A stretch of DNA of 64,000 nucleotides from Candidatus Undinarchaeota archaeon. GTDB taxonomy: Archaea; SpSt-1190; JASMDC01. Position numbers and translations under genes: made by a program. The stretch spans positions 1-64,000 of the forward strand of contig CAZFHY010000009.1 in NCBI GenBank assembly GCA_964519305.1. Direction: 5' to 3'. Below are positions 1,774 through 41,434 of this stretch, in pieces. Numbering within the stretch: position 1 is the first letter of the stretch; every line of letters starts with the position of its first letter. The notes below the pieces were generated by a model that saw only the letters and a program-made list of their open reading frames with translations, made no database searches and was not told where the DNA came from.

Positions 1774-1793
1774 GAACACAGTGAGGTATTACT

Positions 1794-6404: not shown

Positions 6405-6538
6405 GGGACAATAACCGGGAAAAACCGGTATTCGTGCGTTTTCGTCACCTAAATAAACCATCAAAACCAGAAATACTACTAGCAGTTAGAGGAAGGTTTG
6501 TCCCGATGGACCTTCCTCTCAGCATGAGGCACGACACG

Positions 6539-17821: not shown

Positions 17822-17898
17822 TGGTGAGCACCTGTAATAGGGATTTCTGCTTCATATAAACATATAAATAGTAACATCCCCCCCTGTTGCGGAGGAAG

Positions 17899-20664: not shown

Positions 20665-22487
20665 TGACACGACGTGGTCAGATGAACCTCATGGCTCTGG
20701 CGGCCATCGCCATCGTCGTCATCGCCGTCCTCTACCTGATCCTCTCGGGAGAGCAGAAGACTCGCGAGCTCAATATCCAGGAGATCGAGTCCGTCGAGGT
20801 CAAGGACGAGCTGGTGAAGCTCGAGAGCTCGGTAGAAGCGCTCTTCATCGACTCGATCTACGAATCTGTGGACGAGATGGGACGTCATGGGGGGTATACA
20901 GCGGAGAACGCACCGTTGCTCAACCATCTGGGCATCCCCCACTGGTACTACCGCGGACGCACCGTGAGCATCCCGACTGCCAAGGTTATGGAGGATATGC
21001 TCGTTGACGAGATCGAGCGTCGCCTTGGTAAGAAGCTCGACGTCCTCCGCTCTCAGGTCAGGACCGACCTGTTCGCTATCGGGTACCCCGAAGCGAAGGT
21101 CAAGCTGCATGACCATGCCGTGGAGACCGAGGTGTCCGTCCCCATCGGTCTGGTGGCCGACGAGCGCGAGGCGCGCACATCGGTCACGTACTCCAATCAG
21201 CTCCCATTGCGGATCAAGTACCTGCGCGACCTGGCCGAGCAGTACATCCAGAACTACACTGAGGAACGGATGATGGAGAAGGCCTTGCTCAACGGCGTCA
21301 TCCAGGACCAGCGGCTCCCCACGCCGCCTGGGATGATCTCGCGCAACGTGGACTGCGACAGCCAGACCGTGTACGCCTACCGCAAGCAGATAATCTCGCC
21401 CATGCGCGAGAACGCCCAGCTCTCCGTGGCCCGGGAGCTCAAGCGGGTCAAGGAGCTGTTCCGTAGCGAGCAGTACGTCGAATGGGCGGCCGACCTGAAC
21501 GTCAGGGACGTCAACTTCACGTTCATCGCCAACAAGGACGCCGATTACCTGGACAAGACATGGGAGAGCACGGAAGTGATCTATTACGTGCCCTTCGAGA
21601 TGCCACTGATGGACCGGCGTGCAGAACCACGGCTGTGCCCATCCCGGTACACTGTATCGTACTCCGCCCAGTTCCCGGTACGATGGACGCTCCGCGATAT
21701 CCACGAGAGCTCTTTCATCATCGGCGGCGAAGGTTCAGAGGGCAGCCGGCCGTTGGAGTTCAGGTTCTATATACAGCCGCTGCTGGTCGGCGAGCAGACC
21801 AACGCCACCGACGAGAGCGTGATGGATCCCGCTACCGTCGACGACCTGTGTCGAGGCGCCTGCGATGTGGACATCACCGTGAAGAACTCCAATGCGGGGA
21901 CCATCTATATCGGCGCATGCTCCTACCCCTACACGGACAGCCATCTCAAGCAGGCAGGGGTCCCATGCAAGGTCCAGGACCTTATCGTTGTGTCCGATGA
22001 TCCGGTAGGGCTCTCCAAGCATGTCGACAAGGTGAAGATCGACCGCCAGTTCGGCACCACCATCTCGCTCAAGGACTACGCGGTGTTGACCGGGAAGGTG
22101 TTCATGAAGAAGCGGATATACTGCACCAATTCCGGTAAGATCGTGGAGATGGGCGAGGAAACGCTAGGTCACATCGACGGCAATCCCCCCCGATACGTCA
22201 CCATCCTGTTCAAGCCGGTGCACGACGATCTCGGACCCATCGTGAAGGTAGGAGTGGACCGCGATGGTAAGTACACCACACCCCAGCTCAATCCTGGACG
22301 GTACATCGTCCTCGCCGTTCCTTCCGAGGACGATCTCGGTCGCCCACAGTACAAGGTCTCGGCCAAGGTCCTCATTATCGATGTCGAGACATCCACTACA
22401 CTTGACATCGAGATGAACCCGCTCCTCATCGAGAAGGTCGGCGGTAAGATAGAGCACGTCAGCGCCCGCTCTGAGTGCACGGGATGA
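20664..22487 (+). CDS. Large pilin-like exported protein with class III signal peptide
   Basis: N-terminus MTRRGQ-MNLMALAAIAIVVIAVLYLIL fits the archaeal prepilin consensus. TGATG stop/start overlap with the upstream gene. Confidence 0.72.
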   Translation: MTRRGQMNLMALAAIAIVVIAVLYLILSGEQKTRELNIQEIESVEVKDELVKLESSVEALFIDSIYESVDEMGRHGGYTAENAPLLNHLGIPHWYYRGRTVSIPTAKVMEDMLVDEIERRLGKKLDVLRSQVRTDLFAIGYPEAKVKLHDHAVETEVSVPIGLVADEREARTSVTYSNQLPLRIKYLRDLAEQYIQNYTEERMMEKALLNGVIQDQRLPTPPGMISRNVDCDSQTVYAYRKQIISPMRENAQLSVARELKRVKELFRSEQYVEWAADLNVRDVNFTFIANKDADYLDKTWESTEVIYYVPFEMPLMDRRAEPRLCPSRYTVSYSAQFPVRWTLRDIHESSFIIGGEGSEGSRPLEFRFYIQPLLVGEQTNATDESVMDPATVDDLCRGACDVDITVKNSNAGTIYIGACSYPYTDSHLKQAGVPCKVQDLIVVSDDPVGLSKHVDKVKIDRQFGTTISLKDYAVLTGKVFMKKRIYCTNSGKIVEMGEETLGHIDGNPPRYVTILFKPVHDDLGPIVKVGVDRDGKYTTPQLNPGRYIVLAVPSEDDLGRPQYKVSAKVLIIDVETSTTLDIEMNPLLIEKVGGKIEHVSARSECTG

Positions 22488-23467
22488 TGCCCATGGGTCG
22501 GTACGCGGCGTGGCGTACGCTGGGCATCCTCGCAATCATCCTTTCTCTGGTAGTCATCGCCGGGGCCGGCCTGCCCCCCTCGCTCGATTATCGCTCCTAT
22601 GAGCTTTCGCTCTATGTGCGAGCTGACGGGACCTGCCAGGAGCAGATCGATGCCACCTTCATTAACAACGGCACCGAACCGCTGGAGAAGGTGTCGTTCA
22701 CCGTGGGCAAGGATATCGCGAACCTCACCGTGACCGCCTCCCGGCCAGTTAGCGTCACCGAGCGCGATGCGAGCTGGGCGCGGATCATCATCATCGCGTT
22801 CGACGATCCCGTATCGCCGGGAGAACAGGCCTCGTACACGATCAGGTTCGACACCTCCCAGTTCACACGGATCGTTGGCGACGAGCTGGAGGTGCGCACC
22901 ACCTACAAGGCCGCATGGCCCATCGCGGACTTCAGAGCACGGGTCGATCTCCCTCCCGGGTACGTCCTTCCCATAGCAGAGAACGTCACTCAGGTGGCAT
23001 CGGTGGTCGTACCGGCCGCACGGCTCGAGACCGATGGCAAGCATCTCATCCTCCACTGGGACCAGGGTCCCCTCGACAAGGAAGAGACCATGGACCTCTT
23101 CGTGCGTGCCAAACGACCCCCTGCACCGGTCAGCGGGAACACCGCTGATGGTGTATCCATCCTCGTTGCCGGTATCATCGCGGGCGCCTTCGGTTATGCT
23201 CTGCTCGTCCACCTTCAAGCAAGACCATCGGTCCTCTCCGGGTTCTCCCTTGACGAGCGTATCGTCGTCTGTGAGCTGGCCAAGCACGAGGCCCCCATGA
23301 ACCAGAACGATCTGTGCAGGGCTCTCGGGTTCTCCAAGTCCAAGCTCTCGCGGCTCCTGAGCGACCTCGAGGATAAGGACGCGCTCACCAAGGAGCGAGT
23401 GGGGGCGGTCAATCGGGTGACCCTCGACCGGACGCTCAAGGGGGCGTGCCGGAGGGAATCGGGATGA
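22484..23467 (+). CDS. Membrane-anchored protein: extracellular beta domain, TM helix, C-terminal winged HTH (COG2512-like)
   Basis: Signal/TM at the N-terminus, TM near aa 230-250, then QNDLCRALGFSKSKLSRLLSDLEDKDALTKERVG (MarR-type wHTH). Confidence 0.78.
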   Translation: MMPMGRYAAWRTLGILAIILSLVVIAGAGLPPSLDYRSYELSLYVRADGTCQEQIDATFINNGTEPLEKVSFTVGKDIANLTVTASRPVSVTERDASWARIIIIAFDDPVSPGEQASYTIRFDTSQFTRIVGDELEVRTTYKAAWPIADFRARVDLPPGYVLPIAENVTQVASVVVPAARLETDGKHLILHWDQGPLDKEETMDLFVRAKRPPAPVSGNTADGVSILVAGIIAGAFGYALLVHLQARPSVLSGFSLDERIVVCELAKHEAPMNQNDLCRALGFSKSKLSRLLSDLEDKDALTKERVGAVNRVTLDRTLKGACRRESG

Positions 23468-26187
23468 GCTACCGGACGACAGTCCTCCTCCTGTGCATTC
23501 TGTTGTCTCTGGGTACCGCGGTCAACGATATCGTCGAGGAGGTGGACGCGACCTCCCTGGGCCTGCTGACGACCACGGTGCGGTACTCGCTATCCCCCGA
23601 CCAGGTCCGAGGGCTCACCGAGGCCGATCTCCGGACACGCTGCGCGACCCTATCTGGTGCTCTTGAGTGCACGGCCTCTTTGGAGAGCACCGCTGTCGTG
23701 TTCTCCGTCCTGTCGTACCCACAGCTGGAAGTGCGCTCTCTGGACATCGGTGAGAACGAGGTGACGGCCGACCTCCTGTTGGATTACACTCCTCTACAGT
23801 TCGTCCTTTGCGATGGCCTGCGCGCGGGGCCGCGTTCGCTCTCGATCCGATATCCGAGCCATAGAACAACGTTCAGCAGCGTGCGGGGTATCGCCTATCG
23901 TACATCATTCGCCACCCGCCTCGAGCGTCGACCTCTCGGGGTCGGCCTGCATAAGACCGAGTACACCCTCGGCGAGCCCATCCCTCTCCCCCGACTTGGA
24001 GGAAGGCTCTGTGCGGCCCACGTGGACATGGTAGAGGGCGAGGGGGCCCTGACCACATACAGGTGTTCGAACCACACGCTGACCCTCCCTCCAGAGCTCC
24101 AGCCCGGCACACACACACTGACGATCACGCGCCTGGAATCCAATACCGCCTACGTCGCCAAGTTCTCCACTCGGTTCCGCGCGGCCGAGCTCGACCTTGC
24201 CCTGAGGCTCAAGGATGACCGTGCTGCCCTGGGTGAGCCGATCAACCTGACCGTGACGTCCTCCGAGGAGCTCACAGGGTGCTCTGTCCACATCCTCGAC
24301 CGGCATGGTGTGTCGGTCGATGCCGTGACCTACGCGGCATGCGACACCGTGATGCTCGGCACGCAACCCTCCTGGGAGCCTGGTGAGTACGTGGTCCGGC
24401 TCCGCGGGTTCGCCGGACGCGTCTCCGGTGTGGCCTCGATACGTGTCGTGCTCGAGGACACCGGGCTCAAGGATGCCGAGCTCGCTCTGGAGAAGCAGAC
24501 ATACGAGCCTGGTGAGGACATCAAGCCCGCGATCGATGTCCCGGGCGCGACGGGCAAGGAGCGCACCGTCACGGACCTTGTGGACACCTCGGGCGAGAGC
24601 ATCGACAGCCAGGAAGTGGACGGTCTCGATGGAACGGTCATCCCCATCACACCGGACACTCCGCCAGGTGATTACGTTATCAGGACCAAGGTGTACGATG
24701 ATGAGGGTGTGGTCGCCGTGGCCTCCCGGGCGATCCACGTGACAGAATGGCAACCCGCATCACGCAGGTCAGCGCTCTGCCCGCGGGGCAGCCTCTCCGT
24801 GGATGACGCCTCCATCGCATGCATCGCTGAGGGCAACGTGTGCGTACCGACATCGAGCGATGTCCCCGTATGCCTCTGCTTCAACGAGGAGGGGGATCCC
24901 GCACACGTATGCTCGTTCGGCCAGCGGTGCGCTGCGGACGGGTGTGCGGGCGGACCCGAATCACCCTACACCATCGTGTTCGAGCAGTCCAGGTGTCGTG
25001 CCAGACGAGGCATAACTACGCTCCCCTGCATCGGCCAGGGCGAGGTATGCTTCGGCAACTGTGTTTGCCTTGATGAGAACAACGTCCCGCTCTCGCCATG
25101 CAACACCGGAGACGTATGCACTCCCTCGGGCTGCGAGGACGCCGGTATCGTGCTCCGGCTCGACGCCATGACACCAGGCTATACTGGAGTTGACGAACTC
25201 GAGGACGGTATCAAGGTCACCTGGACCGGTTTCCTGAAGCGTGGTGACCGGTTCCTGGGAAGTATGGCCACACGCGACATCAATATCACGGCCAAGCTCG
25301 GCTCCCTCAAGGCCGAAGAGACCGGTTTCGAACACGTGTCTCTTGACAAGGGCTGGCTGTTCTGGGCAAGGTTCGCCGGCTCGATCCCTCCCGGTCACTC
25401 CACCCTTTTCCTCATCATAAGATACGAGAACGACACGGTCCACGTGGTCCGTCGGCCTTTCGCACTGCACTTCCCGGCCGACGAGCGCGGTCTGAACGTG
25501 TCAATTGACGTGCTCACGCCCCAGATGGTCAGCCTGGAGAGCTTGCGCATCGGTACCGCGGTCCGGGTGACCGCTGAAGTGCGGGATGACATGGGAGAGC
25601 CCGTCATGGACCTCGCCACCGAGGAGTTCACCCTCACTCTGGGAGCAGTCAAGGCGCGCTCCCTCTCTGCCCAGTTCGAGCCCGCGAGCAAACGTTGGCG
25701 CGTTGTGGGCACTCTTGAAGGCAAGGTCGCCGCGGATAAGCTCAGCCTCGAGATCGACTCGCTCGGCCGCAAGGCTTCAGCGTCGAGCCCACTCTCGGTC
25801 GTCGAGCATCTGCCGCTGACGTTGGAGATGAGCCGCATCAGGCCGGGCACTGGTGATAATCCGCTTTATTCCATCCTCCTGGGCATCGGGTTCAACATGG
25901 ACATCCATCTCGACCTAGAGGGGGCCGATCTGGTGAGGGAGGAGGACTTCAAGGTGAGCATCGGCGAGCGGGACGTGACGTCGTCGCTGGCGTACATCAT
26001 GTCGACACCCTCCGGTGTTCGGCTCCACCTGTCCCGTGTGAAGCTCTGTCCTGACGCACCAAGACCTGGTGATCCTGTACCGGTCGAAGTGTCAGTGACG
26101 TCAGATGGCGTAACGGTCAGGGACCGTATCTACATCACCGTCCAGGGGAATCCCGGCGCGTGGTCTGATACCGCCAGCGTGTGCTAG
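23464..26187 (+). CDS. Secreted Ig-like/Cys-rich surface protein, paralogue B
   Basis: Colinear with 17899..20664 (GTQPSWEPGEY vs GTQTAWTPGKY; CLCFNEEGD vs CLCFDDPGD; VKLCPD; GNPGAW...C). Confidence 0.8.
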   Translation: MSYRTTVLLLCILLSLGTAVNDIVEEVDATSLGLLTTTVRYSLSPDQVRGLTEADLRTRCATLSGALECTASLESTAVVFSVLSYPQLEVRSLDIGENEVTADLLLDYTPLQFVLCDGLRAGPRSLSIRYPSHRTTFSSVRGIAYRTSFATRLERRPLGVGLHKTEYTLGEPIPLPRLGGRLCAAHVDMVEGEGALTTYRCSNHTLTLPPELQPGTHTLTITRLESNTAYVAKFSTRFRAAELDLALRLKDDRAALGEPINLTVTSSEELTGCSVHILDRHGVSVDAVTYAACDTVMLGTQPSWEPGEYVVRLRGFAGRVSGVASIRVVLEDTGLKDAELALEKQTYEPGEDIKPAIDVPGATGKERTVTDLVDTSGESIDSQEVDGLDGTVIPITPDTPPGDYVIRTKVYDDEGVVAVASRAIHVTEWQPASRRSALCPRGSLSVDDASIACIAEGNVCVPTSSDVPVCLCFNEEGDPAHVCSFGQRCAADGCAGGPESPYTIVFEQSRCRARRGITTLPCIGQGEVCFGNCVCLDENNVPLSPCNTGDVCTPSGCEDAGIVLRLDAMTPGYTGVDELEDGIKVTWTGFLKRGDRFLGSMATRDINITAKLGSLKAEETGFEHVSLDKGWLFWARFAGSIPPGHSTLFLIIRYENDTVHVVRRPFALHFPADERGLNVSIDVLTPQMVSLESLRIGTAVRVTAEVRDDMGEPVMDLATEEFTLTLGAVKARSLSAQFEPASKRWRVVGTLEGKVAADKLSLEIDSLGRKASASSPLSVVEHLPLTLEMSRIRPGTGDNPLYSILLGIGFNMDIHLDLEGADLVREEDFKVSIGERDVTSSLAYIMSTPSGVRLHLSRVKLCPDAPRPGDPVPVEVSVTSDGVTVRDRIYITVQGNPGAWSDTASVC

Positions 26188-29536: not shown

Positions 29537-30733
29537 CTATCCCAGCGGGCAGCCGCCGGTCCGTCCGTGGGGCCGACACAAACGTAGCATGCACATAGCC
29601 ATCACTGCCGCTCCGCGGGCCAGGCCGTCGTCCACGATAGTTATGTCCGGGACACGCTCACGCAGGAGCTCTGGTTTGGCACCGGTCGTGGCCCCGCGGC
29701 CCGTGATCCCGATACCATCGGGCACGGTCATACCCGACTCTTTCACAGCGGTGAGCAATCCGTCGAACAACCGCACAGATAGTCCGTCGAGCACGCACGA
29801 GAGATGGCCAGGAGCAACATCTCGGCAAGCGGCCGTTATCGCGTCAAGGTCGGCATCGCATCCGATGACCGTCACCCCTGCACGCGAGGCGGCAGCAGGA
29901 TCGACGGGGACGGTCCCAACGCGGTCTCCTGTGCGCACGGGGCCGATATCCACCAGTTCCATGATGCCTTCCGAGTGTCTGTCCGTCCGTCCCGGACGCA
30001 CCGGGACGTCCATCGCTGAAGTGAACCCGCACCCCAGAGCCACGGCGTCGAGGATGCCGCCCGCAAGGCCTGCAAAGGTGGCCACGGTCCTGCGTTCATC
30101 ATCGATAAGACGACCGGCCAGGGTCGTACCGAAGTCCAGGGCAAGGTAGGGATTGCGGAACGGGCCTCCGTTCGCCCGGGCATGGTCTTTAAGCCCCGCG
30201 GTCACAAGCTCTCCCTCCATCTCGTTGGCGGCCACGGGCTCTCCCGGTGGGAGCGTGCCAGCGACCGTTCCTGTGAAGGTCGAGCTGTCGATGATGGAGT
30301 GAGAGCGGAGCCGGGGTGCGAGGTTCTCGGCAGAGAGCGGCGCGATCATCTGACGCGGTTCGACACCTGCGGCAAGGCATGCATCGGCCATGGCCTTGAT
30401 CAGGGTTCCCACCTCATCGGGCGAGGAGAATCCTGCGGTAACGCCCGTCGACCTCACGACGAAGTCCAGGTCACGTGCTGAGAGCCGGGCCTGGAGCAGC
30501 GATGTGTTGATCGAGCGGCGAATAATGTCCTTCACTCCGTCCTCGGTGATAGCGTACCCCCATACGGTACGGGCGAAGCCTTCCTTGGCCGCGATTGACC
30601 GGGTCCGGTCCACGTGCCGGGCCGCCACGCGGGAGGTACCGTTATCAAGGTCCGTCTCCACGAGGATACATTTGGTCGTCGTGTTCCCCAGCTCCACCGA
30701 GAGCACACGCAGGGGCTTGGAGGAGAGGGCCAT
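29537..30733 (-). CDS. Methanogenesis marker protein 14 (DUF2114-like), actin/ASKHA-fold
   Basis: SVELGNTTTKCIL, DFVVRSTGVTAGFSSPDEVG, ANEMEGELVTAGLK, FRNP..ALDFGTTLAGR, GLAGG, VDDGLARGAAVMA.C. Lies directly downstream of mtrH, as in methanogens. Confidence 0.82.
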   Translation of the reverse strand: MALSSKPLRVLSVELGNTTTKCILVETDLDNGTSRVAARHVDRTRSIAAKEGFARTVWGYAITEDGVKDIIRRSINTSLLQARLSARDLDFVVRSTGVTAGFSSPDEVGTLIKAMADACLAAGVEPRQMIAPLSAENLAPRLRSHSIIDSSTFTGTVAGTLPPGEPVAANEMEGELVTAGLKDHARANGGPFRNPYLALDFGTTLAGRLIDDERRTVATFAGLAGGILDAVALGCGFTSAMDVPVRPGRTDRHSEGIMELVDIGPVRTGDRVGTVPVDPAAASRAGVTVIGCDADLDAITAACRDVAPGHLSCVLDGLSVRLFDGLLTAVKESGMTVPDGIGITGRGATTGAKPELLRERVPDITIVDDGLARGAAVMAMCMLRLCRPHGRTGGCPLG

Positions 30734-30737
30734 GAAG

Positions 30738-31664
30738 CTATCCGACCAGTTCCGTGAAGGTCCGGTTCTTGGAGATGTCCGTACCGAGCTCCTGGGCCGC
30801 GTCGGCCACTATGGCATCCGCCACGGCAACGGCCGGGAACACGTGCGGCGCGTGCTCGATCGGACCGTAGAGCAGGTAATCGGCGCACATGGCGACCTGG
30901 AGCACGTTGGTAGCGACATCTACGCAGTCCTTTACCTTCCGGTCCTTATCGCTGAGCCAGGGGAGCGAGGCAGGAGCGTTGTGGATGCCCGAGCCCACAG
31001 GGTGTCCCCACTTTGCCTTGGCGGCCAGAGCAGTGCGCACCGCCACACCGGCGCCATTGCCGATAGGCGTCACTGCCGGGTCCACGAGCACTTTTGTGAT
31101 GCCCGCGGCCGACGCCAGGTCCAGTAGTCCGGTATCCGTGACATCACCCCCGTCCTCAAGCAGCTTGAGCCGCCCGTTCAGACCGGAATCCTTGGGATTG
31201 AAGGCGAGCACGATGGCGCAGCTCACACCGGACGAACGCAGCGCCTCGATCTCTTCATCCGTGACGGTCAGGTTGAGCGAATTATAGACTATGCGGTCGA
31301 TAGCGCCCGCCTCGACCGCCCAGCGCACGCCAGCTAGCCGTACGTCGAGCGACGGGCTGTCCACCAGCAGCGGACCCGTGGTGGCGTCGGCAGCGAAGTT
31401 GAGGTAGTTCTCCATTGCCTCGGAGTGGGCTGCGAAAACATGGAGGAGGGCCGGATTGCCCGTTTCCTCCGCAGCGGCCTCGTGTGCAGCTACCAGCTTC
31501 TTGGCACGCTTCTTATCGAAGTCGCCCTGCTTCATGTCATGGACGATATCGTGACCCTCGTAGAAGATGGTCGCGGCAAGTGCCGTGGGGTGTTCCCCCG
31601 GCTGACCGCCGATGGTCGCACCGGCCACCTCGATCGTCCGCTGTTCAGTCTGGAACCTTAACAT
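30738..31664 (-). CDS. mtrH: Tetrahydromethanopterin S-methyltransferase subunit H (MtrH/MtxH family)
   Basis: Start MLRFQTEQ at 31664. IGGQPGEHPTALAATIFYEGH, LLVDS, YNSLN, GSGIHN, DYLLYGPIE. Confidence 0.9.
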   Translation of the reverse strand: MLRFQTEQRTIEVAGATIGGQPGEHPTALAATIFYEGHDIVHDMKQGDFDKKRAKKLVAAHEAAAEETGNPALLHVFAAHSEAMENYLNFAADATTGPLLVDSPSLDVRLAGVRWAVEAGAIDRIVYNSLNLTVTDEEIEALRSSGVSCAIVLAFNPKDSGLNGRLKLLEDGGDVTDTGLLDLASAAGITKVLVDPAVTPIGNGAGVAVRTALAAKAKWGHPVGSGIHNAPASLPWLSDKDRKVKDCVDVATNVLQVAMCADYLLYGPIEHAPHVFPAVAVADAIVADAAQELGTDISKNRTFTELVG

Positions 31665-32305
31665 GATACTAACCCCCGTACTGCGTCGATGCGCACCTGT
31701 CCTCCGACATGGACCGGATGGGTGAGGTAGACGCACCCGGTGAAGGGGTCCACCTCGATGGCCGGGTCCGCTGACAGCCACACGTCGCCGTGAGGCGTTC
31801 CGGTGGGCGGTAGAGTCGTGATCCGTCTCCGGACCTCGACCTCCATAGGCCCTCCCGGGTAGTCCTCGCTCACCTGGTCGTCGAGTTCGCGGACCGTCCG
31901 CGCGATCAGGTCTGGATCATCGATGCCCACCATATCGACCAGCTCAACCTGACGGCGGAAGCGCTCCACGGCCTCAGGTCCTATGTTCTCGATCCGTGGG
32001 ACAGCACCGGTGGCGTCCTTGATCACGCCTTCATCATCGATGCCTTCCCTATGAAGGCAGACCATGGCGTTGCCCGAACGATGGCCCACGACCTCGCTCC
32101 CGGCCACCACCATGAAACGGATGGCGGTATTGGCGATTACATTGACGATGATGCGCTCCAGCCCGAGGTTCTCGGTCTTGCATGAGCCCACGAGGAGAGC
32201 CTCGATGTCCGAGAAGCGCTCTTTGTTGGAACCTACCGTGACGACCACTACCCTGCTGTCCTTCCTGACCTGGATAAAGTCGCCTTTCACGCGCGGCCAC
32301 GCCAC
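31658..32305 (-). CDS. mtrA: Corrinoid protein MtrA/MtxA family, no C-terminal membrane anchor
   Basis: WP..GD, GSCKTENLGLERIIVNVIANTAIRF, GSEVVGH (cobalt-ligand His), GAVPRIENI, AVERFRRQVELVD. Confidence 0.88.
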   Translation of the reverse strand: MAWPRVKGDFIQVRKDSRVVVVTVGSNKERFSDIEALLVGSCKTENLGLERIIVNVIANTAIRFMVVAGSEVVGHRSGNAMVCLHREGIDDEGVIKDATGAVPRIENIGPEAVERFRRQVELVDMVGIDDPDLIARTVRELDDQVSEDYPGGPMEVEVRRRITTLPPTGTPHGDVWLSADPAIEVDPFTGCVYLTHPVHVGGQVRIDAVRGLVSC

Positions 32306-32342
32306 AAACGTGAAAAACCTTTCGTATTTTAAAAGCCTTTAC

Positions 32343-34552: not shown

Positions 34553-37500
34553 TCAGTCCCGCCGACGGCCCAAGTAAGCTCCTGCTAGCGCGAGAAGTGT
34601 CAGCGACTCAACTACACCCACACCAGGCGCGGTAACCAGATCGGAACCACCCGTGGAGCCTGACAGGACCACGAGGTTGACGGTGAGAGGTTCTGCGCGT
34701 ATCTCTTGCGGAACGGTGGCCATCGCCTCGATAACGAGGCTCGTGGTCCCGACCTTGCCCGCGATTATCGGGATCTGGATGACGCGCTGTTCGCCCTTGG
34801 CCAGCTTGTACGTGCACGTCTTGACCCCTACGTTCTCACCACAGTCAAGGACGACGTTGGTGGTGGCCGAGCCTGAGACGGTGAGCGTCACCGCTATCTC
34901 GCCCTCGTAGGGGTTCTGGATGTACACAGGGTAGAGGTGCATCGCACCCACGGTGAGCGCGAGCGACTTGGGCTGGCCCTCCGGATCGAAGAACGGCAGG
35001 TCGTCGACGCACATGGCCCTTAGCGGTGACCAGAACCATCCTGACCGGCAGCAACGGCCGACGGCAGTGATGCAGTTGCCTGTGACGCACTCCCAGTTGT
35101 ACCGACAGGTGCCGATCCGGTATCCGCCCACCTTCAGGTTCACCTTGAAGGGTATGTTCTGGACCACATCGCGACACTCTGCACCGCTCTCCAGGTCGGG
35201 ATCGCCCTTACACACGGTCGATGTGATCTTCACGGTGAAGTCAGTGGGACCCGATACAGGCAGGACCACGTACTTAGAGGCACGGGGTTGGAGTGTCAGG
35301 TTGTAGTACACACCGTCCGAGATAGTCAGCGGCTTGCCTGCCGCGTTGATGACCTGTATAGACACGGGCATCTTGAAGTCCGTGGGGTTCTTGATGAACA
35401 CCGGCACATCGATGATCTCGCCGGGACCAGTGGTTATCACGTTGGCCTTCACGTCCTTGGACCGGTCGCACTCGGCCTTGGACTGCTTGCACGCTTCAGA
35501 GCTCTCGTCCTCGAAGCAGGCATCGGAGAAGCACGCGTCCGAGATGGTCGCTTCGAACCCGCCGACGGTGATCGGGATCTTGTTGACCACCTTGTTGGCG
35601 AACGTACCATCGCCCACCTGGTTCTTGCTCTCCACGATGAGCTCGCCCTTCACGGGTCCGCTCACCGGGATGCGCACGATCTTGGTGGTCCGCGCCTCCA
35701 CGTGGCAGCCGCCGATGGAGGACATGTCGAGGTCGTTGGAGATCTTCGTGCCATCGTCCTTCTCGTACGCGAACGAGATGGCGCACTCCATCTCCGAGTC
35801 GGCGGTGTTGGACACCACGGCCTCGATGTAGTCCTTGCCGATAGCGGCCTGCTGGATCATCTGGGTGTTCTGGAAGAACACGCCCTGGCTCTCGCCTTCT
35901 TGCACGCCCACAGTCTCGCCTGTGGCGAGCTTGGCGGTGACGAACACCGTCACCTCGCCAACGTTCTCCAGCGCGGCCTCGAGGTCGGCAGGTGCCGTCG
36001 GGCACTCACCGGCAACGCAGTGCGCGATGCGCACCTTGATGTAGTAGGTCGCGATGCCCTCGCTGGTCACGTTGAACACGTACTGGTTGTCCGTCTCGGC
36101 ACCAAGGTCCTTGGGCGGATCGGGTAGGGTCTTGATCGGTGCGTGGTCTGCGTCAAAGATCTCGACCTTAAGGCCGAGCGGATAGGACAGGCGGTTGTCG
36201 ATACCGTAGTACCGGTTAAGCGTGGTCTGGGCGTCCTCGAGCGTGTACGTCAGTTCGTCAACGTTCAGCGCGCAAGCATCGTTCTCGCACGTAACGATGA
36301 ACGCGAGGTTCGCCACGAGCTGTGCCTTGGCCTCGTCATCTGTCAGGTCATCTTCCGTGACCTCACCTATCTCGATGTCCGTTTCAACGGACGTGGTGAT
36401 CCACGAGTCGTAGTAGATTAGCTGTGCGCCAGCGAACACGGCGTACTTGATCTGTAGGTCGGTGATCGAGGTCACTGTGAACTCGACGATCCTCGACTCT
36501 CCGGGAGCTATGCCGGAGAGCATTATGGATGCCAGCGTCTTGACACCGGTGGAAACGTTGACCTCTACTGAGACCGTGCTGCCGAGCTGGTTGGTGACCT
36601 TCAGGTACTTCTTTTTGACCTGGTCGATGTTGGTACGCATGCTCAGCACGGGCGGTGGTGAGATACCATCGAGCACGAACTCAGCGTCCGGGACGATACC
36701 TTCCACATCGGTGACGTCGGTGAGGCTTGTCTGTGCCTCGGGAACGGGCGGTAGTGGTGTGTAGCAGTCCGCGGGGCACTTGTTGGGACCGGTCTTCTCG
36801 TCCTCCTGACATACACCATCGGGGCAGGAGGCATCGAGGCAGTCGGCACAGTCGGGGCCCTCGCCCTTCGCGGGCTCGCACTCCCCGTCATTATCGCACG
36901 ACTCGCACACTCCACAGTCGGACGGGCAGTTCTCGCAGCTCTCGCCCTGGATCATGTCGCAGACAAGGGTGCCCGTGATCGGGTCGGGGACACCGCACAT
37001 GTCCGGCAACTGACAATCGTCAGGTGCGTTCTGCCAGCTCTCCCAATAGTCACAGAAGCCGTCAGCGCACACCGTCTGATCACCGGCCTGCTCGCCGGTC
37101 AGACCGCAGCAGTCGGCGGGGCACGTGTCCGTGGTCTCGCCGCGCTCGGATTGGCAGTTGTGGTCGCCGCAGACGTAGATCGGCGCAAGGCAGTCGCGCG
37201 GTAGCGGATCTAGACCCAGCTCGATTATATCGCACACATCGTTGTCCTGACACTCCTGAGGACAGTCCCCGTCGGTCAATGGATCGCACGCACCGTTGTC
37301 GCACGTGACCGGGCATGGGCCGCAGTCGTTGTCGTGGTCGGTGCAGTCCTCGCCCACCTCGCATCCGTTGGCGTCGGGGATGTGGCGTACGACCTCGCAC
37401 TCCTCGCAGATACCGCAGTTGGCCGCGCCCCCGCTGACGGTGCAGCACTCGTTGTAGAGGCACTCCGAGATGGGACCGCAATGGCCGGGGAAGCACGGTG

Positions 37501-40500
37501 ATGGACCGCTGGCCAGCGGTTCCATGCACAGCCCGCCATCGTCGGGCGAACAGTAGCCTTCTATGGAGGAATCGTCCTTGAAGAGCCGGCAGTCCGAGCC
37601 CGCGCCCAGCCAGCTGATGGTGATCTCCTTTGTCTCGAATGATCCCTGGGCGTCACGGTCCACCTGCTTGCAGTAGCGTTTTTCGGTGTCACCGGGCAGG
37701 GTCCGCGTGTGCGTGTCATCGTCGTAGCTCGAGCAATCGCACAGGTCCACGTACTTGAACTTCAGGGTGAAGCCGCGGTTGAACGAAGATTGCATGAACT
37801 GCCAGGTGTTGCACTCGACCTGGTACACGAGGATGCGGTTCTGTCCGGGCCGCAGGGTGTTGGAGACCAGCGGTTCGGCCGAGAGCGTGCAGAAGTTGGA
37901 CTTCCAGCTGGGATCGGGCTCGTCGTTCCCGAGATATAGCTGGTTCTCCCGCGGGTCGTAGTTTAGGATGTAGTCGTAGAGGTCGAAGCCGTTCTTGAGG
38001 TAGGCGATACCGTCCCCCACGTTGGTGAGCACTACCCTGATCTTCTGCACAGGCGAGCAGTGGGGCCATTCGTCATACCCGTCCGGTATGGCCGTGGTCA
38101 CCGTGGCGCTGGACACGACGACGTCGGCGGAGCGCCATATACCTGTTTGTCGGGTACCCTTGTGCTCGTCGAGCGCGTTGAAGAGCCGCAGTTCGTACTT
38201 GGGCCGGGTCATCTGGTCGGGGCCGAACGACTCCGTGGGCGTGAAGCTGCAGTCACCCTCGCACGAGGTGGCACCCTCGCCACAGGTACCTGTGGTGATC
38301 TGGCATTCCGGTGATGCGCCATCGTACTCGAACACCTTGTCATCATGATCATCGCCATGACGCAGGGATATCTTGCGCAGCTCGGTGGTGCACTGGCTCG
38401 TGAACCTGAAATAGAGCGGATCGCCCTTGGCGGGGCAGATGTTCAGGTCGAGGTCCACGGGCGGATCGTAGATGGCGATCTGGGGTTTCTGGATCTTGAT
38501 GTAGAACTCCCCGCACTCGCACCGCTCCTCGTCGAACGCACAGGTAGTTGGATCGCACGTGATGCTCCCGTCCTCGTCAACGTCCCGGGCTATGAGTATC
38601 TTGTGCTGGCCGAAGGGCGTCGATTCGGGAATCCGGATGGAACAGGTAGCGTCCTTCCTGTACTCCTTTCCCGTGCCAGCGTTACAGGTGCCAAGCTTGC
38701 GATCGTCGGCGATGCGGTCCAGGTACACGACAGCCTCGGGGCTCGAGCAGGTCACGGTGTAGGAGAAGGTGATGGTCGCTCCCGGGCACAGCTCGGTGAT
38801 GGGGGGTGCTTCGGTTAGCGTGATCTGGGGGTCCGCCACTTCGAACCCGAGGTCGGCCTGGCCCATCCGCCAGCCGTCGGCGCCCTTTGCAGAGTTGCAC
38901 GAACCGAACTTGCAGATGCTGCTCAGACCGCTGTCGGAGTACTGGTTGCACCCCCAGGCCCTGTCGCCCTCGCCACCGCAGTCGGGGCACACGAAGTTGC
39001 CCTGCGTGTCACAGACACGGGTGGCGGTGTCCACGTAGATGGTGTAGACACCGGGTGCTCTGGGCCCGAGGTATGTCTTCCCGGTATTGGCCCGGTAGTC
39101 GATGTCGTTCCCGGGCGCGTGACCGTAGCGTCGCCAGACATCGCATGTCTGTCCGTCCGATGCACGCAGGTAGGCGATGGCACCGGGGCTCGAGAGGACC
39201 GAGTTGCACGAACTGTCCTTGCACAGCATGCACTTACTCGTGGAGAGGTAGTTCTCGGACTTACCGCCCATGTCGATGATAGGCGACTTGTGCGGATCGC
39301 ACACGGGATTGGACCCGGCGTAATTGATATCACCACACCTCGAGATGCGACCATAGGAGTTGAACGAACCGGTGTTGCGTGCACCGTTCGAGCACACGAG
39401 GTTGTACTGGCTCACGGTGACGTAGAACTGTAGCGCGTCACCCGGACAGATCTGGTTGCCTGTCCGGTCCGGGTCGATATCCACGTTTATAGCACCGGAG
39501 TAGGAGATACCTGTGCTCTGAGTGGCCCCGACGCTGTGGGTGCAATGTGAACCGGCACAGGTGGCGCCGAGGTTCACCTTGCAGTTACCGTTCTTGCACG
39601 TGAACGTCTCATCGGCGTTCTGTCCGGCGAGCCTGAGCTTCACGGCCTGTGAGCCCGTGGTGGTCTTGGGATTGATGGCAAGACGACACCAGGGGTCCGG
39701 GTCCTGTTGTATCGTGGAACCCCCGTTCTCGAGCGACGTGGGTCCCGGACACGTACCTTGGAGCTTGTCCCCCAAGATCACGTCGAAGTAGGTGCCGGGC
39801 GGGTAGCACCGGCTCGCGATATGGAGGTAGAGCGATGCCGACAGACAGGTGCTGTCAGGGAACACGTACAAATCGATTCCCTTCTGGGCGATATCGAGGG
39901 TGACGCTGTCCGAGTCCTCGTAGTACATCCCGGACTGGGGCGCTTTTGCGACGATGTTGACCGATGTCTTGCTGAAGTCCGAGGGGAGCTTGAGCTCGAC
40001 GTACCCGAAGGCGTCCGGGGTCTGGGTCGCACCTATCTGCAGGTCACCGTCGAACATCTTGACGGCCACATGATTGCTACGGACGACGCCCTGACCCCAT
40101 TCATCGATGACGCGGACCTTGAACCTCACACCTGTGCATCCGCTCGGTGGAAGCTCGGTGACGGTCAACTTGCTGACAAGCTTCAGATCGGTGATGGCCG
40201 TGGAGTAACCGTTCTTGAAGGCCACGATCTCAAGGTCGCCCACGAAGTAGGCCATGTCGATGATCGCTTCTGCGGCGGAGTCCCAGGTGAACCTGCCTGT
40301 AGCGTCCGTGGTCCCTTGGGTCATGATCGTCTTGGTCTCGGCGTCACGCACCTCGATGTTCGCTTCCGGGACCGGGTCGTTGGAACTGGTCACAACGAAA
40401 CTGACTGTGCTCTCCGGGTGGATGCTGTTCACCTCCTGGTCGGAAACGTCAAGGATCTTGACGTCGATGATAGGGATGTCGATGGGGATGAACTGCTCCA

Positions 40501-41434
40501 TCTCCTGGAACGCGCCGAGCTCGTCCTTGGCGAAGGCGACAAGGCGGTAGTTGCCGTAGTCGACGTTGTGCAGTTCGCACTCCATGGCGTCACCGTCAAC
40601 AGAGCACTGATCGATTTTCCCTCCTTCCGGGTTGTAGAGCGCCAACGTCTTTTCCACGATCTCGTCATCCTCGGGATCGTTCCAAGTGATCGCTATGTCG
40701 AACTTCGTTATGGTGTCACCGCCCGAAGGGATGGTGTGGACCTCGATGCTCGCATCAGCGGCACGGGGGTGGAAGTTGGTGATGGCCAGGCGAGCACCTG
40801 TGCTGTCCCACTCATCCTCGCCCGAGTCGATGAAGATACCGCAGCCCAGGATAGGTGTTCCCAACGGATCGAACCGGAAGTAGAGGAAGTCGTTGTCGAT
40901 CCGGTCGATGGTCGCCTCGATCCGGTGATCGGCCATGGTCATCTCGCATGTATTGGTTATGGCCTCTGACCCGCGGAACTCGAACCATTCGTCACCGTTC
41001 TCCGGATCACAGTCCAATGTAGGGTAGTATGTATCGCTCGAGCAGAGGGCTACTCGGTACTCGGGAGGTGCCTCACAGTTGGTGGAAGCATAGTACCACA
41101 GCTCTGCTTTGTGATTACTGTAAGCCGTCGTGTTGAACAGCACTCGGACGTACTTGGGGTTCTGGGAAGGATCGTGATGCTGTGGTTCGTTTGTGATGCA
41201 TGCCTCGTTGCGTGTGAACCGCTTCCAGAGACAGGGATCATCCTCCTCACCTGAAGCGACAGCGCAGGCCGCGTCGATGATTGCATTGGTCACATTGTCG
41301 TCCTCACCGCTCTCGATGAGGACTATGAGCGTATCCTTTGAGCGGGCCTCACCTCCTTCCCCTACTGCCGGCAGCAGCACGAGAGCCAGGAACACGCATG
41401 TAATGAACAGGGCATCTTTTCGATCTATCGACAT
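34553..41434 (-). CDS. Giant (2293 aa) Cys-rich multidomain surface protein with PGF-CTERM-like C-terminus
   Basis: Signal peptide, Ig-like domains, C.DG.C...E...CP.DC repeats, C-terminal APGVGVVESLTLLALAGAYLGRRRD. TATAAAAA and GGAGGT upstream. Confidence 0.85.
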   Translation of the reverse strand: MSIDRKDALFITCVFLALVLLPAVGEGGEARSKDTLIVLIESGEDDNVTNAIIDAACAVASGEEDDPCLWKRFTRNEACITNEPQHHDPSQNPKYVRVLFNTTAYSNHKAELWYYASTNCEAPPEYRVALCSSDTYYPTLDCDPENGDEWFEFRGSEAITNTCEMTMADHRIEATIDRIDNDFLYFRFDPLGTPILGCGIFIDSGEDEWDSTGARLAITNFHPRAADASIEVHTIPSGGDTITKFDIAITWNDPEDDEIVEKTLALYNPEGGKIDQCSVDGDAMECELHNVDYGNYRLVAFAKDELGAFQEMEQFIPIDIPIIDVKILDVSDQEVNSIHPESTVSFVVTSSNDPVPEANIEVRDAETKTIMTQGTTDATGRFTWDSAAEAIIDMAYFVGDLEIVAFKNGYSTAITDLKLVSKLTVTELPPSGCTGVRFKVRVIDEWGQGVVRSNHVAVKMFDGDLQIGATQTPDAFGYVELKLPSDFSKTSVNIVAKAPQSGMYYEDSDSVTLDIAQKGIDLYVFPDSTCLSASLYLHIASRCYPPGTYFDVILGDKLQGTCPGPTSLENGGSTIQQDPDPWCRLAINPKTTTGSQAVKLRLAGQNADETFTCKNGNCKVNLGATCAGSHCTHSVGATQSTGISYSGAINVDIDPDRTGNQICPGDALQFYVTVSQYNLVCSNGARNTGSFNSYGRISRCGDINYAGSNPVCDPHKSPIIDMGGKSENYLSTSKCMLCKDSSCNSVLSSPGAIAYLRASDGQTCDVWRRYGHAPGNDIDYRANTGKTYLGPRAPGVYTIYVDTATRVCDTQGNFVCPDCGGEGDRAWGCNQYSDSGLSSICKFGSCNSAKGADGWRMGQADLGFEVADPQITLTEAPPITELCPGATITFSYTVTCSSPEAVVYLDRIADDRKLGTCNAGTGKEYRKDATCSIRIPESTPFGQHKILIARDVDEDGSITCDPTTCAFDEERCECGEFYIKIQKPQIAIYDPPVDLDLNICPAKGDPLYFRFTSQCTTELRKISLRHGDDHDDKVFEYDGASPECQITTGTCGEGATSCEGDCSFTPTESFGPDQMTRPKYELRLFNALDEHKGTRQTGIWRSADVVVSSATVTTAIPDGYDEWPHCSPVQKIRVVLTNVGDGIAYLKNGFDLYDYILNYDPRENQLYLGNDEPDPSWKSNFCTLSAEPLVSNTLRPGQNRILVYQVECNTWQFMQSSFNRGFTLKFKYVDLCDCSSYDDDTHTRTLPGDTEKRYCKQVDRDAQGSFETKEITISWLGAGSDCRLFKDDSSIEGYCSPDDGGLCMEPLASGPSPCFPGHCGPISECLYNECCTVSGGAANCGICEECEVVRHIPDANGCEVGEDCTDHDNDCGPCPVTCDNGACDPLTDGDCPQECQDNDVCDIIELGLDPLPRDCLAPIYVCGDHNCQSERGETTDTCPADCCGLTGEQAGDQTVCADGFCDYWESWQNAPDDCQLPDMCGVPDPITGTLVCDMIQGESCENCPSDCGVCESCDNDGECEPAKGEGPDCADCLDASCPDGVCQEDEKTGPNKCPADCYTPLPPVPEAQTSLTDVTDVEGIVPDAEFVLDGISPPPVLSMRTNIDQVKKKYLKVTNQLGSTVSVEVNVSTGVKTLASIMLSGIAPGESRIVEFTVTSITDLQIKYAVFAGAQLIYYDSWITTSVETDIEIGEVTEDDLTDDEAKAQLVANLAFIVTCENDACALNVDELTYTLEDAQTTLNRYYGIDNRLSYPLGLKVEIFDADHAPIKTLPDPPKDLGAETDNQYVFNVTSEGIATYYIKVRIAHCVAGECPTAPADLEAALENVGEVTVFVTAKLATGETVGVQEGESQGVFFQNTQMIQQAAIGKDYIEAVVSNTADSEMECAISFAYEKDDGTKISNDLDMSSIGGCHVEARTTKIVRIPVSGPVKGELIVESKNQVGDGTFANKVVNKIPITVGGFEATISDACFSDACFEDESSEACKQSKAECDRSKDVKANVITTGPGEIIDVPVFIKNPTDFKMPVSIQVINAAGKPLTISDGVYYNLTLQPRASKYVVLPVSGPTDFTVKITSTVCKGDPDLESGAECRDVVQNIPFKVNLKVGGYRIGTCRYNWECVTGNCITAVGRCCRSGWFWSPLRAMCVDDLPFFDPEGQPKSLALTVGAMHLYPVYIQNPYEGEIAVTLTVSGSATTNVVLDCGENVGVKTCTYKLAKGEQRVIQIPIIAGKVGTTSLVIEAMATVPQEIRAEPLTVNLVVLSGSTGGSDLVTAPGVGVVESLTLLALAGAYLGRRRD

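Follow-up and report, generated by a model that had tools for sequence, protein, structure and literature searches.

The 64,000-nucleotide stretch of DNA analysed here, in the following called the window, contains a three-gene operon for a soluble MtrA, an MtrH and the methanogenesis marker 14 protein (DUF2114) in an archaeon that is not a methanogen. Our tentative interpretation is that this operon represents the soluble methyl-transfer half of the Mtr complex, in which MtrH would load MtrA, the methyl group would be passed to soluble acceptors, and marker 14 would keep the cobamide active. The operon type as such is already known from Thorarchaeota; what is new is the lineage carrying it. 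The following features were found:

31658..32305, minus strand: mtrA, soluble corrinoid-binding protein of 215 aa, GTG start; the core (residues 1-155) is of the MtrA Rossmann type
30738..31664, minus strand: mtrH, pterin-binding methyltransferase of 308 aa, ATG start
29537..30733, minus strand: marker 14/DUF2114, 398-aa ATPase-like protein with an ASKHA fold, a shortened family member
32325..32335, minus strand: TATA-like box CTTTTAAAATA, whose midpoint precedes the mtrA GTG by about 25 nt, from sequence reading and pattern search

The tight coupling of the three genes noticed in the first, sequence-only reading of this DNA was confirmed by the coordinates, because mtrH, starting with the ATG at 31664, shares 7 nt with the end of mtrA, and the mtrH stop is followed after 4 nt by the ATG of marker 14. 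The GTG at 31781, with which mtrH begins in the list of open reading frames (30738-31781), belongs to an upstream extension, and the real start is the ATG at 31664. When up to two mismatches are permitted, the CTTTTAAAATA pattern occurs four times in the 64-kb window compared to 0.67 expected matches, and all four are placed in intergenic regions upstream of genes. The copy in front of mtrA probably acts as a single promoter for the three genes, and its position relative to the mtrA start implies a leaderless or near-leaderless transcript. A scan for sigma-70 promoters and intrinsic terminators, which is uninformative for an archaeon, returned no sites. According to Pfam/NCBIfam profiles, the operon is flanked by genes for a RecJ-like nuclease and a YlqF-like GTPase, in agreement with the initial statement that neither mtrEDCBFG nor mtxX is located nearby. 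An MtxX-like gene, overlooked at that stage, exists on another contig of the genome (169.3 bits at a cut-off of 190). All three genes of the operon are under purifying selection, as indicated by dN/dS values against the sister species of 0.146 for mtrA, 0.051 for mtrH and 0.093 for marker 14.

The product of the first gene belongs to the MtrA family (PF04208, 5.9e-48, 163.2 bits at a cut-off of 25) and scores below the NCBIfam equivalog cut-offs (TIGR01111, 152.2 versus 249.15; NF010654, 168.4 versus 279). The start at 32305 retains the conserved Trp3-Pro4. His75 aligns with the lower axial ligand His (His84) of solved MtrAs (5laa, 1.1e-37), and Glu45, which is invariant in the alignment, is the Glu partner of this ligand; the roles of both residues follow the consulted parts of Wagner et al. 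(2016). A C-terminal hydrophobic helix is absent, since the Kyte-Doolittle hydropathy averaged over 19 residues peaks at 1.66, within the core, whereas in a comparison of 40 MtrAs all 24 of the methanogen/ANME type reached 2.06-3.03 at residues 202-228. Hence, both the kept His ligand and the missing membrane anchor of the sequence-only reading were verified, but its beta-rich tail was not: in the model, residues 160-215 of the 55-aa tail have a pLDDT of 35-51 and form just two short strands. The second product is a clear MtrH (Pfam MtrH, 4.8e-102) and exceeds the TIGR01114 equivalog cut-off (347.5 versus 271.4). In trees, this MtrH and marker 14 are placed on their own long branches outside the Thorarchaeota clades, which argues against a recent transfer from Thorarchaeota, even though this placement is uncertain owing to the branch lengths and an unusual composition.

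The third protein has DUF2114 as its sole Pfam match (1.9e-101) and scores above the cut-off of TIGR03285, 'methanogenesis marker 14' (336.5 versus 274). It shares 60 invariant alignment columns with 36 homologues, and the motifs ELGNTTTK, DFGTTLAGR and GITGRG as well as two Cys are invariant in all 37 marker 14 sequences. With 398 aa it is shorter than the aligned proteins of other lineages (437-494 aa), and its branch is very long. A sequence search of the PDB gave no hits at E values up to 1. The AlphaFold2 model (pLDDT 84.6) matched the ASKHA superfamily in fold searches (Z 17.6-14.6), including activators of the benzoyl-CoA reductase/dehydratase type (9gai, Z 16.3; 4eht, Z 15.6) and the diol dehydratase reactivase (2d0o, Z 14.6). 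No subfamily was picked out, as CoaX, AnmK-like proteins, FtsA and activator ATPases all fall within about 2 Z units, and sugar kinases reach equally high scores. Marker 14 therefore appears to resemble RACo/RamA, which activate corrinoid proteins by ATP-dependent reduction, in its ASKHA-type fold at the superfamily level, and its gene lies beside that of a candidate corrinoid partner. In contrast to RACo/RamA, it shows no PF14574 match and no recognisable ferredoxin or Fe-S domain, the two invariant Cys being all that was found in this respect, and the model matches RACo itself (3zyy) weakly (Foldseek rank 13, TM 0.40). Complex predictions of marker 14 with MtrA gave run scores of 0.41, 0.00 and 0.00, which speak neither for nor against an interaction. 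A literature search on 'DUF2114' found nothing, while the name 'methanogenesis marker 14' does occur; a term search of the 2026 Mtr cryo-EM preprint gave no match on reactivation, ATP or markers.

The gene neighbourhood of marker 14 was compared in 80 fetched loci. In 44 of 68 judgeable loci the fetched flanks include mtrH, and in 24 it is not nearby, with none over a distance of at least 3 kb upstream. Soluble MtrA is lacking in 69 loci; of the 57 judgeable ones among these, 27 have mtrH upstream in the same orientation. The view that in methanogens marker 14 usually comes after mtrH is thus only partly true. The family is not restricted to methanogens: it is present here without McrA and also in entries labelled Thorarchaeota, Promethearchaeota and Archaeoglobales. 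The suggested decoupling of marker 14 from methanogenesis is correct, yet it is not new, because a contiguous same-strand soluble mtrA-mtrH-marker 14 arrangement was detected in 10 of the 80 loci, all of Thorarchaeota/Asgard type (7 labelled Thorarchaeota, 1 Promethearchaeota and 2 'archaeon'). Furthermore, the small genomes of the class relatives G003 (92% complete) and G011 (84%) contain MtrA-type genes and no marker 14, hence this protein is not needed by every soluble MtrA.

The host genome comprises 3.63 Mb and is 99.83% complete, and a sister genome of the same genus is 98% complete. McrA (PF02249) gave no match in the host genome, the one searched for it, and MtrE (PF04206) none in either genome of the genus, while both controls were positive in two methanogens; MtrE was the one membrane subunit searched for. 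These results support the initial view of a non-methanogen and speak against an ordinary methanogen with a second mtr copy, the case that the first reading had named as contrary to its own proposal. Its further label, DPANN-like, is partly justified. According to GTDB, the host shares its class with 15 genomes measuring 0.6-1.2 Mb, and the sister genome is named Candidatus Undinarchaeales archaeon in the public database; this class-level kinship and this name, the two lines that bear on the matter, point to membership in Undinarchaeia. However, a genome-reduced DPANN archaeon is ruled out by the genome of 3.63 Mb with its full Wood-Ljungdahl gene set. One gene cluster of the host harbours cdhA, cdhB, cdhC, cdhD, cdhE, ftr, fwd genes and mch; both genomes of the genus encode Mch and CdhC, and each has two copies of Mtd. 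Mer was found in neither of the two genomes, and MetF adjoins MetV, with metVF on a different contig than the window operon. Judged from its gene content, the host thus has a predicted complete H4MPT Wood-Ljungdahl pathway in which MetVF would replace Mer, so that methyl-H4MPT would be an intermediate in the cell. Among the 17 genomes of the class, CdhC as marker of this pathway occurs in two, both of the host's genus, and MtrA-type genes in four.

In the mechanism that we infer, down to the direction of methyl flow, the pterin used, the acceptor and the whole role of marker 14, MtrH would bind methyl-H4MPT delivered by this Wood-Ljungdahl pathway and methylate the cobamide on soluble MtrA in its Co(I) state, with His75 as lower ligand whenever the cobalt is Co(II) or methyl-Co(III). 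Since MtrE, the MtrA anchor and Mcr are all missing, neither ion pumping nor methylation of coenzyme M by the known route can take place, and methyl-MtrA might instead serve soluble acceptors. Marker 14 may be an ASKHA-type nucleotide-binding protein acting on MtrA, which would put or keep the cobamide in its active form, either through reductive reactivation driven by ATP or through loading of the cofactor, in analogy to RACo/RamA elsewhere. The RACo/RamA-type activator domain PF14574 was found in neither genome of the genus, despite the presence of three corrinoid methyl carriers in each; M. jannaschii, used as control, likewise contains marker 14 and no PF14574 match. The operon might have been kept after the loss of Mcr and the membrane subunits, or it might never have been joined to them. 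The notion of a minimal corrinoid/pterin methyl-transfer module, already put forward from the sequence, gains support from the family matches and the gene coupling.

The likeliest acceptor would be homocysteine, via two MesA-like core methionine synthases. Two such enzymes are encoded in each of the two genomes; in the host they reside on contigs C26 and C28 and exceed the NF002119 equivalog cut-off of 258 (266.5 and 312.1), and both keep the His-Cys-Glu-Cys zinc motif (HVCG, EF, DPDCG). The gene on C26 terminates a second operon, mtrA2-mtrH2-mesA, which is joined by ATGA and GTGA start/stop overlaps; its three genes also occur on one contig of the sister genome. This operon had been overlooked before. 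MtrH2, whose gene lies beside gcvH and mesA, stays below the TIGR01114 cut-off (221.4 versus 271.4), and the two MtrH lineages of the host are far apart in the tree; the gene of the nearest MtrH2 relative, in the small-genome G011, lies between glyA and thyA. Marker 14 accompanies the first MtrAH pair and the methionine synthase the second one, and the window operon itself names no acceptor. In the consulted parts of Price et al. (2021), MesA is predicted to take its methyl group from MtrA and is reported from methanogens only, in contrast to the non-methanogenic host described here; adjacency of mesA and mtrA in a few genomes is mentioned by Price and Arkin (2024), as far as the available text goes. 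Hence, mtrA2-mtrH2-mesA provides gene-order support, in a non-methanogen, for the predicted methyl transfer from MtrA to MesA.

Several known systems resemble the operon in part. Methanosarcina possesses a soluble mtxXAH set, compared to which the window operon has marker 14 as its third gene and the MtxX-like gene on another contig. The Na+-pumping methyl-H4MPT:coenzyme M methyltransferase of methanogens (MtrA-H) shares the MtrA core with its His and an MtrH above the equivalog cut-off, but here MtrE is absent from the genome, MtrA is anchorless and Mcr is missing. Closest in build are the clusters of Thorarchaeia and other Asgard archaea, with contiguous mtrA-mtrH-marker 14, an MtrA without membrane helix, and a tail that can be aligned with that of the window protein (THP..G..VR). 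They differ by an upstream metVF and a second mtrH', both lacking in the window operon, whose marker 14 is about 65 aa shorter and whose proteins come from a different lineage on their own long branches. For Thorarchaeia, the accessible part of Adam et al. (2022, PMC9635834) describes a Wood-Ljungdahl background without Mcr, and interprets canonical MtrAH and the Mtr-tied marker m26, which would correspond to marker 14/DUF2114, as remnants of methanogenesis. Cytoplasmic MtrA homologues of methanogens are likewise soluble with the His kept, and one of them (M. fervidus, 5laa) is the best solved match; they measure 170-180 aa and have relatives in non-methanogenic archaea according to the consulted sections of Wagner et al. 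(2016), whereas the window MtrA has 215 aa with an extra tail. MetH, finally, would unite as modules what are separate proteins here, namely MesA-like (homocysteine/zinc), MtrH (pterin), MtrA (cobamide) and marker 14 (possible reactivation), although the MtrA fold binds cobalamin differently from MetH, as stated in the same sections of Wagner et al. (2016).

Alternatively, methyl groups could run in the reverse direction, i.e. an unrecognised methyltransferase would load MtrA from an environmental methyl compound and MtrH would transfer the methyl group to H4MPT, from where it would be oxidised or enter acetyl-CoA synthesis. In principle, MtrH can work in both directions, and the complete Wood-Ljungdahl pathway could accept such methyl groups, but MttB, MtaB and the MtaC/MetH-type cap domain PF02607 were each found in neither of the two genomes of the genus, which speaks against classical methylotrophy. 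Moreover, URO-D profiles gave weak matches only, on the mesA-like gene itself, and the operon flanks contain no candidate methyltransferase gene; we therefore regard reverse flow as rather unlikely. A shuttle between pterins, in which the two MtrH types would act on H4MPT-type and folate-type carriers and the MtrA cobamides would link the energy and biosynthetic C1 pools, appears improbable to a slightly greater degree. It would fit the distance of the two MtrH lineages in the tree, the biosynthetic neighbours of mtrH2 and its G011 relative, and the Thorarchaeota metV-metF-mtrH'-mtrA-mtrH-marker 14 loci, where two MtrH types surround one MtrA. However, each MtrH has its own MtrA here, in separate operons on different contigs, and MtrH specificity is unreadable from sequence.

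Methylation of coenzyme M or another thiol without MtrE has been proposed for MtrA-like and MtrH proteins of Freyarchaeia, an Asgard group, in the consulted part of PMC11291895. This precedent notwithstanding, such a function is very unlikely in the present host, considering that MtrE and a URO-D-type MT2 enzyme were not found in the two genomes and that there is no Mcr to use methyl-CoM. ComA was also missing from both genomes, but its M. acetivorans control was silent as well, which leaves room for other CoM routes. That the operon is a decaying leftover without present function can hardly be believed: the shortened marker 14 on its very long branch would be compatible with decay, but dN/dS values of 0.05-0.15 for all three genes contradict a pseudogene remnant, and the frames are intact, catalytic residues are kept and synteny is conserved.

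Returning to the proposed soluble methyl-transfer half of Mtr, all of its parts are soluble, and neither a membrane complex nor a competing Mcr route exists in the host, hence it would make a convenient in vitro system for two questions, the role of MtrAH outside methanogens and that of marker 14. A more far-reaching and, in our opinion, rather doubtful reading is that a free-living 3.6-Mb branch of Undinarchaeia (DPANN) retained by descent both the H4MPT Wood-Ljungdahl pathway and, as leftovers of methanogenesis, the MtrAH head, marker 14 and the MtxX-like gene, that the ATP-dependent activase of the MtrA cobamide, long missing, is marker 14, and that MtrH, MtrA, MesA and marker 14 together form a MetH-like four-protein methionine synthase working on methyl-H4MPT. 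If this were true, DPANN would have descended from Mtr-bearing ancestors, and the pathway loss in the stem of Undinarchaeota/DPANN cluster 2 would have occurred later than a 2026 reconciliation study infers. Provided that the class-level placement with the small-genome Undinarchaeia holds, the lineage bears on the origins of DPANN archaea.

The genes mtrA, mtrH and marker 14 lie on the reverse strand between two neighbours of opposite orientation, in the following arrangement.

31658-32305, reverse strand: mtrA ORF (Pfam MtrA, 5.9e-48)
30738-31781, reverse strand: mtrH ORF as listed (Pfam MtrH, 4.8e-102)
29537-30733, reverse strand: marker 14 ORF (DUF2114, 1.9e-101)
ending at 29523, convergent: RecJ-like nuclease gene, next downstream of marker 14
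ATG at 32343, divergent: YlqF-like GTPase gene, upstream neighbour of mtrA
32325-32335, reverse strand: TATA-like motif CTTTTAAAATA, midpoint roughly 25 nt upstream of the mtrA start

The tight coupling claimed in the sequence-only reading was confirmed: the true mtrH start, read from the sequence, is the ATG at 31664, which gives a 7-nt overlap with the mtrA stop, and 4 nt separate the mtrH stop from the marker 14 start. Only 37 bp lie between the mtrA GTG (32305) and the divergent GTPase ATG (32343). The TATA-like motif is rare, with 4 matches (at most two mismatches) versus 0.67 expected in this window of 60% G+C, and by our placement all four are located upstream of genes. The gene coupling and this rare box before mtrA make it likely that the three genes are read from one nearly leaderless transcript. 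The order is identical in the sister genome of the same genus, with protein identities of 84% (MtrA), 95% (MtrH) and 90% (marker 14) and dN/dS values of 0.146, 0.051 and 0.093, respectively; hence, the three genes are in use. MtrH and marker 14 score above their NCBI equivalog cut-offs (TIGR01114, 347.5 vs 271.4; TIGR03285 'methanogenesis marker 14', 336.5 vs 274), and MtrA is under the equivalog cut-offs (TIGR01111, 152.2 vs 249.15), its best model being NF010654 ('methyltransferase', 197 positions), matched over 2-195.

Judged from its residues, this MtrA looks soluble and competent. The His ligand noticed earlier is indeed present: in the alignment, His75 (within GSEVVGH) takes the place of the His that ligates cobalt in MtrA proteins of solved structure, with the cytoplasmic homologue from M. 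fervidus as best match (5laa, 1.1e-37). Glu45 is invariant in the alignment, and its counterpart is described in the structural account of Wagner et al. (2016) as a partner in a hydrogen-bond chain. The reported lack of a membrane anchor also held when 40 MtrAs were compared: a C-terminal hydrophobic peak (2.06-3.03 at residues 202-228) occurs in 24 of them, all from methanogen/ANME records, and is absent in the other 16, which comprise the window protein, its sister, 10 Thorarchaeota/Asgard-type proteins, the paralogues of the second module described below and two from small-genome relatives. The 55-residue tail shows a loose alignment to Thorarchaeota MtrA tails; its description as beta-rich is unproven, because it was modelled at a pLDDT of only 35-51.

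Marker 14 has no relative of solved structure that is detectable by sequence, and a literature search for 'DUF2114' returned no paper. The AlphaFold2 model (37 sequences, pLDDT 84.6, pTM 0.86) clearly has the ASKHA (actin/Hsp70/sugar kinase) fold, but it does not single out a subfamily. VIA-align against 48,161 chains placed CoaX (Z 17.6), the benzoyl-CoA reductase ATPase subunit (16.3), the 2-hydroxyacyl-CoA dehydratase activator (15.6) and diol dehydratase reactivase (14.6) near the model, with FtsA, Kae1 and sugar kinases within the same Z range; in Foldseek the corrinoid activator RACo ranked 13 (TM 0.40). The alignment contains nucleotide-site-like motifs (ELGNTTTK, DFGTTLAGR, GITGRG) and two invariant cysteines (381 and 395). 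The window protein is a short form (398 aa vs 437-494 aa in other aligned lineages), lacking both the N-terminal extension and the basic C-terminal tail seen there.

The gene arrangement is of a kind already known, so that what the window operon adds is a member from a new lineage. Of the 600 stretches matched in our marker 14 survey, 590 were confirmed as relatives, and 80 loci were fetched. In 11 of these loci mtrH stops no more than 151 nt short of marker 14, with a soluble MtrA encoded directly upstream; the eleven comprise the sister genome, seven records titled Thorarchaeota, one Promethearchaeota and two 'archaeon'. Two annotated loci of this group (L053, L095; about 300-9800), titled Thorarchaeota and archaeon, carry the full nine-gene cluster hflX-metV-metF-mtrH'-mtrA-mtrH-marker 14-cofE-larC, where, in distinction to the window, two MtrH types surround one soluble MtrA right after the methylene-pterin reductase genes. 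In the relevant passages of Adam et al. (2022), MtrAH is present in many lineages with a role called unclear, and a marker m26 'tied to Mtr', presumably marker 14, is a remnant in Thorarchaeia and Mtr-bearing Bathyarchaeia. His-bearing MtrA homologues in non-methanogenic archaea were already mentioned by Wagner et al. (2016), the Asgard results of PMC11291895 include MtrA-like, MtrH and fused forms, and a preprint reported mtrAH in Thermoplasmata without the Wood-Ljungdahl pathway. In our trees the window and sister proteins stand on their own branches (1.94 for marker 14, 1.12 for MtrH) outside the Thorarchaeota and methanogen clades, a placement for which the programs warn of long branches and odd composition. 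One survey locus titled Bacteroidaceae bacterium (L104) has a Methanobrevibacter-like mtrA-mtrH-marker 14 set nested in Methanobacteria in both trees, and is probably a mis-binned contig.

According to GTDB, the window's genome and its sister (3.8 Mb) are the sole members of their family, and the other 15 genomes of the class measure 0.6-1.2 Mb. The term 'DPANN-like' is acceptable as a label, given this class kinship and the title Candidatus Undinarchaeales archaeon shared by the records of the sister and of the closest marker 14 homologue, but it does not describe a 3.63-Mb genome with a Wood-Ljungdahl pathway. Among the 17 class genomes, CdhC, core MetE and marker 14 occur only in this pair, and MtrA-type genes in four. 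In one small relative (0.9 Mb; G011, L041, C65) glyA adjoins mtrA (197 aa)-mtrH (264 aa)-thyA, and in another (1.2 Mb; G003, L043, C1) a 549-aa MtrA-domain fusion adjoins dCMP deaminase, so that the small-genome genes sit beside thymidylate and C1 genes; marker 14 is absent from both genomes. [quoted passage not shown] Hence, a large Wood-Ljungdahl genome in this class may be undescribed so far.

The assembly (3,634,172 bases, 42 contigs, completeness 99.83%, contamination 4.29%) contains one cluster (C5:100967-124076; L016, L017) with cdhA, cdhB, cdhC, cooC, cdhD, cdhE, mtd, ftr, fwd genes, hdrA/mvhD and mch. There are two Mtd genes in total, and metV-metF lie on a separate contig (C17:66955-68531; L125). 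Mer was found in neither this nor the sister genome, so that the pathway is of the archaeal H4MPT Wood-Ljungdahl type with MetVF replacing Mer. McrA was missing from the window's genome and MtrE from both genomes, which rules out an ordinary methanogen with a second mtr copy and agrees with the earlier view of a probably non-methanogenic organism. ComA was likewise found in neither genome. An MtxX-like (methanogenesis marker 4) gene (C14:19453-20061, L132; 169.3 vs cut-off 190), also present in the sister, would add to the methanogenesis-type leftovers; it is followed downstream, in the same orientation, by TPP enzyme, radical SAM, homocitrate-synthase-like and isopropylmalate-dehydrogenase-like genes.

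The window of this Wood-Ljungdahl archaeon also carries, all on the reverse strand, a RuBisCO large-subunit gene (44462-46063), an ORF with OMP-decarboxylase/HUMPS-type and SIS domains (49352-50629), composed like a hexulose-phosphate synthase/isomerase fusion, and a 757-aa ORF (54779-57052) with the domain set of bacterial polynucleotide phosphorylase (two RNase PH domains plus KH and S1), which is unusual in an archaeon; archaeal-type uS9, uL13 and SepF genes are on the same contig. Three giant ORFs are present (1794-6404, 1536 aa; 6401-17536, 3711 aa; 34553-41434, 2293 aa). No Pfam domain matched the 1536-aa product (E up to 1e-5), the 2293-aa protein is rich in Cys and has a hydrophobic N-terminal stretch and an anchor-like C-terminal end, and four further ORFs of 500-925 aa (271-1773 and 17887-26187) had no Pfam match.

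A second module on contig C26 (L005: 2207-5170) bears on the function. Here mtrA2 (soluble product, 194 aa), mtrH2 and a core methionine synthase gene follow one another, their start and stop codons overlapping as ATGA and GTGA, and gcvH is divergent from them; the three genes also share one contig (C52) of the sister. MtrH2 of both genomes clusters with MtrH of G011 (SH-aLRT 98, long branches). This synthase and a second MesA-like one, whose gene stands alone on C28, exceed the NF002119 cut-off (266.5 and 312.1 vs 258), and both keep the His-Cys-Glu-Cys zinc motif.

We favour a flow in which the methyl group would be taken from methyl-H4MPT by MtrH, handed to MtrA and finally reach homocysteine through the MesA-like enzymes, with marker 14 as a putative ATP-using keeper of the cobamide. 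Reverse flow, that is methylotrophy, a shuttle linking two pterin pools, and thiol methylation are rival explanations. The homocysteine route is preferred because the cell is predicted to make methyl-H4MPT, because no known substrate methyltransferase system was found among those searched (MttB, MtaB and the MtaC/MetH cap domain in neither of the two genomes; URO-D-type methyltransferases as weak matches only, on the mesA-like gene), and because MesA-type acceptors are present, one wired to an MtrAH pair. The role of marker 14 is suggested by the lack of RACo/RamA in both genomes despite three corrinoid methyl carriers. The 26 and 30 B12-binding domain matches in the window's genome and its sister, respectively, suggest heavy cobamide use; a single one of them was examined (C14:14726-16339) and turned out to be a B12-radical SAM protein. 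Against the favoured reading it counts that marker 14 and mesA adjoin different MtrAH pairs, that MtrA occurs without marker 14 in the two small relatives, that the fold of marker 14 is not specific for activators, and that it lies away from mtrH in 24 of the 68 judgeable loci.

The MesA type was defined by Price et al. (2021), who, in the section concerned, reported it from methanogens only and predicted MtrA as methyl donor, and mesA/mtrA adjacency was recorded for a few genomes in the corresponding part of Price and Arkin (2024). Seen here in a non-methanogen, the mtrA2-mtrH2-mesA order lends support to the idea that MtrA donates the methyl group to MesA.
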